IMG/VR virus record: IMGVR_UViG_2529293044_000006
Location: 1 to 24,435 of that record
From: a virus
Lineage: Duplodnaviria; Heunggongvirae; Uroviricota; Caudoviricetes
DNA: 24,435 nt
Reading direction: 5' to 3' (one strand)
Shown here: piece by piece, positions 5,922-8,661 of the stretch
Position numbering within the stretch: the stretch's first letter is position 1
How the letters are laid out: each line of letters opens with the position of its first letter
Made by a program: the position numbers

Positions 5922-8661
5922 GCTGCTGCCTTAGCTTCTTCTTCGGCTTTAATCCGCGCCTGTTCCTCCTCATAATCAGTAAGAGGCTGGCGTGCCTTGG
6001 CTTTCAGCTCATCAAGGCGATCGCGCACTGTCTTGCGGTTGGCATCAATTAGCTTTGGAATTTCCTTCAGTTCAGCAACAAGGTCTTTGCCAAGACCATC
6101 GAGATATGTTTTCGTCTGCGCAACTTTATACGCCAGAGAAGCGATCTCCTTTCTGCCCTTTGCCGTTGTGATATCAGGCACAAAGGACATAACTTCACGT
6201 TCAACCTTTTGAAGGATTTCTTCAATCTGGTCGGCAGACTGAAATACAGTCATTGCATTTGCTTTTTCAATAACAACTAAATCTGTTACTTCACTCATAT
6301 ATCCTCCATCAAAAAAATTGCCCTCACATTGGAGGGCAAAGAAGATTTCCAATAATCAGAACAAGTCGGCTCCTGTTTAGTTACGAGCGACATTGCTCCG
6401 TGTATTCACTCGTTGGAATGAATACACAGTGCTTATTCGTACTAATAAAACACCCAATTTTCTGTTTCTTGGTTGTGTCCAAAGTTATATTCAATATCTG
6501 GTGTTGATGTATCAATATTCTTCATCCCATCAACAAGAGTTGATACAACAGCCAAATCTTGTTTGATTCTCATCAAATGGTATTTCTTTCGGCGCAATAA
6601 ACTTTCAATGGCAAGTTTCTTCGTCGGGAATGCAAAAGATCTTTCTGCATTTTTTGCTACTTTCTTAATTGCATATCTATTTCTCCTTTGTTTCCATTCC
6701 TGTAACCACTGATTTGGTGCTGGTTTAAAATTAACAATCCAATGCGCAGGAACCAACCATGCATAATGCTCTGTCTGATGAAAAGCTATATATTGAAGTG
6801 CGAATATTTTGATCCCATCTTCTTCAACTGTCGCCTGGAATCTCCAGAAAACAGGCATTCCATCATGTTCAGTTTCTGATTCAGGAAAAGGTACGCTCCA
6901 TGATTTTGTCATATCTCACCTCAAATAAGTGGTTTGCTGCCTAATTTCATTTTCTGGCGACCAACACAAGTCATCTTGCTGTCAGTTGTTTGGATTTCCG
7001 GTAGCCTGCCGCGTAAATGGCTACGTTTGGAAGACATACACCAGTTTCTGGTTGCTTATGTCCAAACTCATTCGCGTACACAATGGCCGCTCGCTCCAGA
7101 TTGCGTCTGTATTCTTTCTGTTGCCAGATCACGTCCTGTGCTATGAACTTAATTGGCTTAGCGTCTTCTATGCGCTCAGGCGTTTCGTGAGTACCTTTAG
7201 CCTGAATCTGCGCTCTGCTTAGAGTAGGGCGGTGTAATACTTCTGAACTTATTGCTTCTTCGCGGGCCAGTACGCCGTTAGCTAATGCCTTTGCCTTTAA
7301 ACGCTCACGACGACGAGAACGTGAATTGCCTTTGAACTGAGTTCTGCGTGTCATATAGACCTCCTGATGAACTTTGGTGGTGTGGTCGGTGGGAGACCCA
7401 TTTCGACCTGTTTCGGCCTACTTCAATTCGGCAATAGTCCCGCAGGCCTCGCCGCTTTACGTGCGACATATTCCCGTCCATGAACCCTTCACCACACCCC
7501 AAAGTTCACTTTGGTTATTGCGCTTTGTCAGCGCCGTAGATTCTTGCTTGAATCGTTGTATATTCACCGCCCTGGTGAGTAGTGCGTCCTGCTGATGTGT
7601 TTAGTATCACCGCCAGTGGTATTTGCGTCAACACCGCCAGAGATAATTTATCACCGCAGATGGTTATCTGTATGTTTTTTATATAGATTTATTTTTTTGC
7701 AGGGGTGTGTGGCTTGGGAGGTGATCGAGAGATCTGAATTGCGATGTTTAGTGAGTTGTATCTATTAATTTTCAAATAAATACAATTGGTTATGTGTTAT
7801 TGGGTGAAGGGGATCGTGAGGTAAAGAAAACCCGGCGCTGAGGCCGGGTTGTGTGTTACTTAAGAACGAGTCCGTTTAAGGCATCAAGGATTTTGGAAAC
7901 ATAACTTCCAAAAATGTAGGCGCAAAATGCGAACACGAAACTGACAACGACCGCAGATGCCTTGATGGTGATTTTTGCTGAGCTAATGCTTGTCTCAATA
8001 CCTGACAGACGAGAATCTACAGATTTTATATCTGACTTTACTTCAGCGAGATCGCGCTTGATGTATTCAACATCAGACTCTAGCTTTGCAACTCTAGCCT
8101 CAAGCATGTTACCTCCGCCGTTTCCTCCACCATGCCGTGAGTATGCATCATCAGTGGAATAGTGTCCAATTGGGCGAGATATGTTTTGATTTGGACGAAG
8201 CTGAGCAACCTTGTTATCTAAACTCATCGCGAACTGATCCTGTTATCTTCACGTCAAAAAACGAACTTTTTACATCAATTACTTCGCCTTTATCAGGATT
8301 AACCAGTGATGCTCTAACTTCGAATATCCCAGGCTTGATAATTTTCACCCTTGGGAAGTTAATTCTCATAGAAGTTGATACGATGGTTTCTCCATCGTTG
8401 GCTTCTGCTACCGTAAAAAACTTATGGTTGGAGTACAGTTTTGTGTCAATTGGTATCGGTATTTCTTGAGCATTGAAAACCTCAATGCCTATGGAATATT
8501 TTTTTGTAGCCTTAAGGCCGATAAAAAAAGCGCCAAATGATAGATCCACTTCATGGGAGTCTTTATCCATTTCATAGATAAGAACTGGAGTTACTGGGTT
8601 GCCTTCATCCATCGCAATCGGAATGATATAAGAAATACGTTCTTTAATCATTTACGTGTTA

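Follow-up and report, generated by a model that had tools for sequence, protein, structure and literature searches.

What takes the place of rexA and rexB when a phage keeps the rest of a lambda-type immunity region, and what might such cargo do for the lysogen that carries it? The question is raised by a stretch of DNA of 24,435 nucleotides (nt) from a Caudoviricetes virus (IMG/VR record IMGVR_UViG_2529293044_000006, positions 1 to 24,435), referred to here as the window, to which all coordinates apply unless another locus is named. Between the repressor gene cI and the terminator t_imm, the window holds a cassette of two genes, designated here A and B. The cassette belongs to a widespread modular family, a start signal inside B recurs family-wide, and the cI gene of this copy is frameshifted; all three observations go beyond the first-pass annotation. 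The explanation that we tentatively favour, largely on comparative sequence evidence, is that A may serve as a sensor docked on the N-terminal peptide of a membrane effector, B, the pair forming a lysogen-expressed defence that would convert the sensing of a phage into membrane failure.

The cassette between its lambda-type flanks

The operon begins with a cI repressor gene of lambda immunity type (8659..9372, minus strand, as are all features of the operon), recognized by its Peptidase_S24 and HTH_3 domains. After a gap of 7 nt (cI TAA at 8661-8659; A ATG at 8651-8649) comes A (8214..8651), an open reading frame (ORF) of 145 amino acids (aa). B, whose long form comprises 123 aa (7856..8227), begins within the end of A, and the overlap of 14 nt read from the sequence (8214..8227) suggests translational coupling. 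Only 5 nt past the B stop, a terminator scan located a t_imm-type intrinsic terminator (7820..7850), the hairpin of which has a stem of 8 base pairs (bp), six of them GC, followed by a T-run (7850-7829). Given the 7-nt gap, the 14-nt overlap and the single terminator after B, cI-A-B is one operon that ends at t_imm. Beyond it on the same strand (7603..7665) lie the left operators OL1 (7621-7605), OL2 (7645-7629) and OL3 (7665-7649), which were read from the sequence, and the promoter PL (7631-7603), which was found in a promoter scan. An Rfam search detected no RNA in 7000-9800.

The borders of the cassette are sharp. By BLAST, identity with lambda is 98% from position 8663, in the last cI codons, rightwards, and 88% from 7850, where the t_imm hairpin begins, leftwards across OL1-3 and PL to 7564 (lambda 35550-35826). 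The hairpin itself is identical to the one that follows rexB in lambda, and BLAST found no alignable lambda DNA between it and the cI stop. Since lambda homology breaks at the cI stop and resumes at the hairpin, the cassette replaces rexA-rexB exactly. The first-pass annotation had placed the cargo in just this slot, as two ORFs co-oriented with cI, and its coordinates and its 7-nt and 5-nt spacings were right. Its description of the cargo as low in GC holds to a degree: the cassette does fall below cI, if only modestly (0.38-0.44 versus 0.47-0.48). The window is a lambdoid prophage. Its DNA around the cassette is 99-100% identical to a prophage of enteropathogenic Escherichia coli (EPEC) E2348/69 (NC_011601.1), of which it is a mosaic relative.

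Several observations show that A and B are real genes. Both match PHROG families of unknown function, A matching phrog_5893 (E = 8.5e-65) and B phrog_6136 (E = 3.6e-46). Homologues occur in the Salmonella P22-like phages epsilon34 (gp45/gp44), g341c and NM-3, where A is 74% identical and the pair sits in the same slot, directly behind a different repressor and before OL/PL. In epsilon34, gp45 and gp44 overlap by 14 nt, as here, while A and B at other loci overlap or are separated by gaps of 0-8 nt. Measured against epsilon34, the ratio of nonsynonymous to synonymous substitution rates (dN/dS) is 0.11 for A and 0.38 for the first 40 codons of B. Since conservation and the dN/dS signal belong to the sense frames, the two antisense ORFs at 8137-8469 and 7962-8162 (plus strand) were discarded.

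Of 5426 complete E. coli genomes, 14 have the entire cassette and 20 have DNA of the conserved half of B. The module resides in prophages of E. coli (including EPEC E2348/69), Salmonella, Klebsiella, Enterobacter, Citrobacter, Serratia, Yersinia and Pectobacterium. A profile of the A family searched against 1.84 billion representatives retrieved 103 members at E < 1e-3, nearly all of them standalone proteins of 138-153 aa, and every member with a named organism came from Enterobacterales.

Other phages with lambda-type flanks carry different genes in this slot, a variability that the survey of related phages suggested by the first-pass annotation brought out. Lambda has rexAB, HK97 has gp49/gp48, mEp234 has hicAB with a hypothetical gene, and ev099 has a gene for an NYN-domain protein. 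In HK97 (L098, 447-1351), gp49 (88 aa) and gp48 (216 aa) are of unknown function; in mEp234 (L099, 1007-2137), the hicA/hicB toxin-antitoxin pair is accompanied by a hypothetical protein of 141 aa. Prophage defence genes, including RexAB, BstA, remAIN and GiPD474, are documented from the interval between cI and N (PMC8585504, PMC12724215), which PMC8585504 describes as a hotspot, citing Degnan 2007. The A-B cassette is accessory cargo (a "moron") of this hotspot.

Predicted architecture of A and B

Protein A was modelled by AlphaFold2 (AF2) as an immunoglobulin (Ig)-like beta-sandwich with a confidence (pLDDT) of 88. No specific structural or sequence relative was found: the fold match was to generic Ig-like domains, Pfam, NCBIfam and PADLOC hold no family for A, neither A nor the profile of its family retrieved any sequence from the PDB, and a BFVD search returned uncharacterised phage proteins only. 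Structure comparison gave no DNA-binding fold. Across 19 diverse members of the family, G108 is the sole invariant residue and no polar residue is conserved, so A lacks a catalytic signature. The claim that A is soluble was borne out by a 19-residue Kyte-Doolittle maximum of 0.81 with no hydrophobic segment, and inspection of the N-terminus by eye found no signal peptide. Taken together, A is read as a probable cytosolic binding module, and it is the proposed sensor or adaptor of the pair.

Protein B has a very different build. Its residues 1-39 are variable in the family alignment and disordered in the AF2 model (pLDDT < 50), and they end in a Gly linker, GGGNGGG, at residues 33-39. From residue 40 to residue 122, AF2 predicts one continuous helix for B alone. 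A coiled coil of seven heptads occupies residues 41-90 (7958..8107, minus strand; LVLVILVIVLIIAI), as shown by heptad analysis and AF2, with hydrophobic residues at 14 of 14 a/d positions. It is followed by a C-terminal transmembrane (TM) helix at residues 92-110 (7898..7954, minus strand), which is the only hydrophobic segment in B and reaches a 19-residue Kyte-Doolittle mean of 2.11. Beyond this helix lies a tail of 13 residues, SKILDALNGLVLK, near-invariant in the main subfamily. The family alignment, hydropathy and AF2 model thus predict that B is a tail-anchored membrane protein with a cytosolic stalk, in agreement with the Gly linker, coiled coil and single TM helix that had been read from the sequence at first pass.

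The resemblance of B to XhlA that was proposed at first pass proved weak. The build of coiled coil and C-terminal TM helix is there. The Pfam model for XhlA (PF10779), however, scores B at 19.3 bits against a cut-off of 34.7, and the match spans positions 9-55 of 67, that is, the coiled coil. Among 30 relatives of B, about two-thirds match weakly (best E = 8.3e-6; highest printed score, 23 bits), and the cut-off of 34.7 bits is reached by none of 40 B-family proteins, counting these 30 and a further scan of ten. A generic coiled-coil family, FlaC_arch, matches as many members of the B family as XhlA does. The label "hemolysin XhlA" that NCBI gives to relatives of B should not be taken as a function, because the Pfam match behind it is below threshold. 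On such scores, B does not appear to be a demonstrable member of the XhlA family; NCBIfam and Pfam hold no family for it above threshold. That neither protein was recognised at first pass thus still applies, as Pfam, NCBIfam, PADLOC, PHROGs and PDB name no function for either.

The linker region of B also contains what looks like a second start. The GGGNGGG codons (8111..8131, minus strand) hold two GGAGG motifs resembling Shine-Dalgarno (SD) sequences (8128-8124 and 8116-8112), and an ATG at 8107-8105 stands 4 nt after the second of them. The first-pass annotation had noted this ATG, and the signal proved to be conserved throughout the family. In 53 of the 56 unique genes for B, a Met comes straight after the run of glycines, and the two Val exceptions that were checked both have GTG. 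Of 33 unique family segments, 24 have GGAGG at a distance of 3-12 nt before this Met, whereas redrawing synonymous codons with local usage predicts 12.7, and three divergent B-like genes from loci found through A retain both ATG and GGAGG. In the AF2 model, the helix begins at residue 40/41, i.e., at this very Met. A conserved ATG or GTG behind GGAGG, together with a helix that starts there, makes a short isoform plausible; this candidate product of 83 aa (7856..8107, minus strand) would consist of the coiled coil and TM helix alone. A weak promoter-like site of sigma-70 type within B (8168-8140, minus strand; TGGACA, 17-nt spacer, CATACT) was considered and dismissed as being at chance level, with 6 such sites versus 4.3 expected. 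It is placed just upstream of the internal SD motif and ATG, recalling the position of lambda PLit within rexA.

Exchange of partners within the family

The wider family was assembled by scanning IMG/VR with an alignment of B, from which 80 loci were parsed, and by searches seeded with A, for about 90 loci overall, in which the pair nearly always comes behind a prophage repressor. In about 78 of the 80 B-seeded loci, B is preceded by a closely coupled ORF of some 90-170 aa, and the apparent partner-less loci are parsing misses or truncated contigs. Conversely, look-ups with three A relatives (P0099, P0115 and P0200) led to five loci (L093-L097), each with a repressor, an A gene and a coupled gene. 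The coupled gene was translated in four of these, and all four showed a variable N-terminus, poly-Gly, Met, coiled coil and C-terminal TM helix. These genes had escaped the search with B sequence, their coiled coils being unrecognisable at that level. From these loci, the pairing of A with B looks obligate.

The identity of the partner is another matter. There are 43 unique partners: 35 are members of the A superfamily, itself highly divergent (partners of B at other loci were linked to A by BLAST), five are Cys-rich, zinc-ribbon-like proteins of 110-132 aa, and two represent a family of ~90 aa. Neither alternative family matches Pfam or PADLOC, and NCBIfam likewise gives them no family. Loci in which the coiled-coil/TM module of B is joined to partners unrelated to A include L034, L058-L061, L073 and L088, as well as L054 and L091. 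In 59 loci, the gene for an S24 CI-type repressor stands before the partner; in a few, an Arc-like one takes its place. The repressors ahead of A-B units comprise the unrelated S24, HTH-only and Arc-like types. Other settings also occur. At L058-L061 (about 3000-3800), the module is found amid tail genes, downstream of a tape-measure-like gene or of DUF6246; at L056, it lies beside small secreted-protein morons, after an Arc-like repressor. In Rac-like prophages of Enterobacter, A-B occupies the racR-to-ydaE interval, where Rac of E. coli K-12 has ydaG, ydaF, sieB and kilR.

To locate the points of exchange, 46 unique A/B pairs were compared in all combinations (1035 comparisons). None of the 52 pairs with A at least 60% identical had B N-termini below 35%, and no pair with A below 30% had B N-termini at 50% or more. 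The C-terminal half of B behaved otherwise: it fell below 45% in 13 pairs with A at 60% or more, and it stood at 70% or more in 113 pairs with A below 30%. The other flank of A, which served as a control, was also free to vary, as 25 of 71 pairs with similar A had unrelated repressors and 107 pairs with dissimilar A shared a repressor. Exchange thus has two sites, the boundary between repressor and A and the linker of B, and it has never separated A from the N-terminal peptide of B. Such an unbroken association would be expected if the peptide is the docking site of A. A swappable partner attached to a retained C-terminal module of B would fit the pattern of a variable sensor and a conserved effector.

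Possible functions and relation to known systems

According to the explanation that we favour, the cassette would be a two-gene moron transcribed as cI-A-B to t_imm and, being transcribed with the repressor, made in lysogens. The C-terminal helix of B would sit in the inner membrane, with the seven-heptad coiled coil, probably oligomeric, reaching into the cytoplasm and bearing, on a flexible poly-Gly linker, a disordered peptide of about 35 residues. A would bind this peptide and confer specificity or act as the sensor. Detection of a superinfecting phage by way of A would free the conserved coiled-coil/TM part of B to damage or permeabilise the inner membrane, and the infection would be aborted or excluded. 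The shorter isoform of B, lacking the A-binding peptide, could set the threshold, in the manner of P22 SieB, with its short form Esc, and of lambda holin S, with its two forms. What points to an anti-phage role is the combination of a repressor operon, a slot used for defence, a variable sensor with a conserved effector, a holin-like membrane protein, and the retention of an intact cassette in an otherwise decaying prophage. Extended to the family as a whole, the proposal would be that of an undescribed modular immune family of Enterobacterales prophages, in which a dual-start tail-anchored effector receives interchangeable Ig-like or zinc-ribbon sensors via its N-terminal peptide and acts by membrane failure; in this extended form, we regard it as doubtful.

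A number of observations weigh against the defence explanation. PADLOC-DB v2.0.0 gave no match for A and just weak coiled-coil noise for B (CorA-like, E = 0.0039; LmuB), and PADLOC likewise had no match for divergent A/B relatives or the alternative partners. Literature searches by accession number, PHROG id and DefensePredictor supplement found no paper on A or B, with the E. coli prophage defence screen of Brenes & Laub 2025 lying outside their coverage. Gly-Gly codons readily give GGAGG, and the enrichment of the motif is ~2-fold among sequences that are related; moreover, the conserved Met could be structural, standing as it does at the start of the helix. If B is toxic without A, an isoform that lacks the A-binding peptide needs a separate explanation. 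The A gene and the N-terminus of B are contiguous DNA, and their linkage could be partly physical, although the uncoupling of A from the adjacent repressor argues against it. Finally, cI carries two 1-nt homopolymer deletions near 9294-9295 (within 9280-9310; on the plus strand, T5 to T4 and T7 to T6) relative to E2348/69 and lambda, which shift the frame after about codon 25. The lesion occurs in none of 17 related loci, all of which are intact, and it is either a sequencing error or the mark of a defective prophage with a dead repressor. The frameshift makes PRM-driven expression of A-B in this host uncertain.

Other explanations account for part of the evidence. It is conceivable, albeit unlikely, that the pair excludes superinfecting phages by tethering and without killing, B being an anchor and stalk that holds a binder, A, under the inner membrane. 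There, A would intercept incoming ejection proteins, the tape measure or the DNA-entry machinery, or it would be released into the cytosol in the manner proposed for Butters gp30/gp31. The TM helix, rigid coiled coil, flexible linker and peptide do resemble a fishing line, and A has a variable, binding-type fold devoid of catalytic residues. HK97 gp15 acts at the inner membrane. P22 SieA works there as well (PMC10883804), and in the Butters model a membrane protein sequesters a soluble partner (PMC7542560). However, B retains 70-86% identity in its coiled coil, TM helix and 13-residue outer tail while A drops to about 20%, which is hardly expected if B is a mere anchor, and a conserved isoform consisting of the anchor alone would have no obvious role. 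A somewhat less likely proposal directs the module away from phages altogether, making it either a membrane toxin and antidote that stabilise the prophage or a lysogenic-conversion module that alters the host envelope (stress tolerance, vesicles, virulence). A small membrane protein with a tightly coupled soluble partner would suit such a role, as would the presence of hicAB in the same slot of mEp234, the occurrence of the module as a moron among tail genes, and its survival in a decayed prophage. The "hemolysin XhlA" label points the same way, yet it derives from the sub-threshold Pfam match discussed above. Furthermore, the fast diversification and wholesale swapping of partners, which come from three unrelated families, would better fit an arms race than a fixed host target, and A, with its confidently modelled fold, is unlike typical labile antitoxins.

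A role in lysis we consider improbable. Here, B would be a holin helper of XhlA type and A a sandwich protein like XepA or YomS, together serving the phage's own lysis or its timing, as in the lytic cassette of PBSX. That cassette does combine a coiled-coil/C-terminal TM protein, XhlA, which is essential for lysis, with a beta-sandwich protein, XepA (PMC6834076), and the weak Pfam matches of B and about two-thirds of its relatives agree with the comparison. A showed no detectable relation to XepA or YomS, and the analogy, when followed up, went unconfirmed; the XhlA scores are sub-threshold in all 40 proteins scored. We know of no variable N-terminal peptide or poly-Gly linker in XhlA. The context differs too: the PBSX genes form a lysis cassette of a Gram-positive prophage, whereas A-B belongs to an immunity operon. 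The B gene is part of a repressor operon in the window and at about 60 related loci, and the lysis genes of the E2348/69 prophage lie elsewhere. Least probable of all is a RexA-like regulator of the lysis-lysogeny switch or of induction, acting via CI/Cro or host factors. Co-transcription with cI in the rexAB position would be in keeping with it, and PMC11077077 describes RexA as a DNA-binding protein that biases the lambda switch. In contrast, A lacks a DNA-binding fold, and the same A-B units stand behind unrelated repressors and among tail genes, which argues against a repressor-specific partner.

Should the cassette prove to be anti-phage, it would represent a compact system of 0.8 kilobases made from two new protein families. 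Its design rule, a conserved membrane effector with a peptide adaptor and a swappable sensor, would account for the exchange of specificity through recombination at a single conserved linker. In lambda-immunity phages, the rexAB slot would then host a functionally analogous, unrelated two-component cargo. As the module occurs across many enterobacterial genera, it may affect phage therapy and typing in them. If it is not a defence, the dual-start tail-anchored protein remains an unexplained membrane factor expressed by lysogens.

Elsewhere in the window, the early-left (PL) operon is interrupted by an insertion sequence (IS) of the IS21 family, itself interrupted by one of the IS3 family (2793-5561, plus strand), and this insertion is absent from the E2348/69 relative. 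The IS21-family element encodes IstA (340 aa) and an IstB truncated at 174 aa, while the IS3-family element encodes orfA (102 aa) and orfB (288 aa). The truncated IstB matches "DrmD" in PADLOC, which was discounted as shared ATPase-family similarity rather than a defence gene because Pfam assigns the protein to IstB_IS21 (E = 2.1e-67). The N antiterminator gene (6971-7354, minus strand) is intact (Pfam N_peptide, E = 2.8e-15) and distinct from lambda N, lambda homology stopping at 7564, between PL and the position of nutL; for the N gene of E2348/69, RefSeq has just a fragment annotated as a pseudogene. Within a replication-initiator ORF (10272-11069), 3.9 copies of a 21-bp unit (10563-10647, plus strand) encode GGAGAAR repeats and are probably origin iterons.

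How, then, does the cassette relate to systems already described? BstA, GiPD474 and remAIN share its situation, each gene lying directly after a repressor and presumably sharing its promoter (PMC8585504, PMC12724215). All of these are unrelated to A and B: BstA consists of one large protein that associates with DNA, GiPD474 is an ATPase, and neither has a membrane component. HepS and Tai were also considered and are unrelated systems. The inferred isoforms of B invite comparison with P22 SieB/Esc and lambda holin S107/S105, in which one gene yields a long and a short in-frame product that are mutually antagonistic. The conserved internal ATG or GTG behind GGAGG in the B family would permit a similar arrangement, with the distinction that the long form of B exceeds the short by an entire 40-residue peptide and linker. 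Neither A nor B showed similarity to SieB of the E. coli K-12 Rac prophage.

By description, the cassette also resembles several two-protein systems expressed from prophages, each with one cytoplasmic and one membrane protein, namely gp30/gp31 of Butters, gp30/gp31 of Sbash and gp43/gp44 of CarolAnn. These pairs, from two mycobacteriophages and a Gordonia phage, respectively, defend against heterotypic phages, and a physical interaction of both proteins has been proposed for Butters gp30/gp31 (PMC7542560, PMC6426596, PMC6426606). All three phages are actinobacterial, and their membrane partners have four TM helices, unlike B. The comparison with RexA and RexB of lambda, on which the first-pass annotation had rested its "RexAB-type" designation, holds for position and layout: the same slot, co-orientation with cI, a soluble gene followed by a membrane gene, and expected expression in the lysogen. 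In addition, an internal promoter allows RexB to be made without RexA, which parallels the candidate isoform consisting of B only. Similarity to RexA or RexB was not significant by BLASTP or family profiles, and no Rex model appeared in the PADLOC or Pfam scans. RexA is a DNA-binding protein of 279 aa, whereas A is an Ig-like sandwich of 145 aa; the spacer between cI and rexA is 112 nt in lambda, compared with the 7-nt gap here; and four TM helices are found in RexB and in every RexAB-like membrane partner described (PMC7542560), where B has one C-terminal helix and a cytosolic coiled coil. The cassette is RexAB-like in its position and its soluble-plus-membrane layout only, and it stands in the place of rexAB as cargo of another family.

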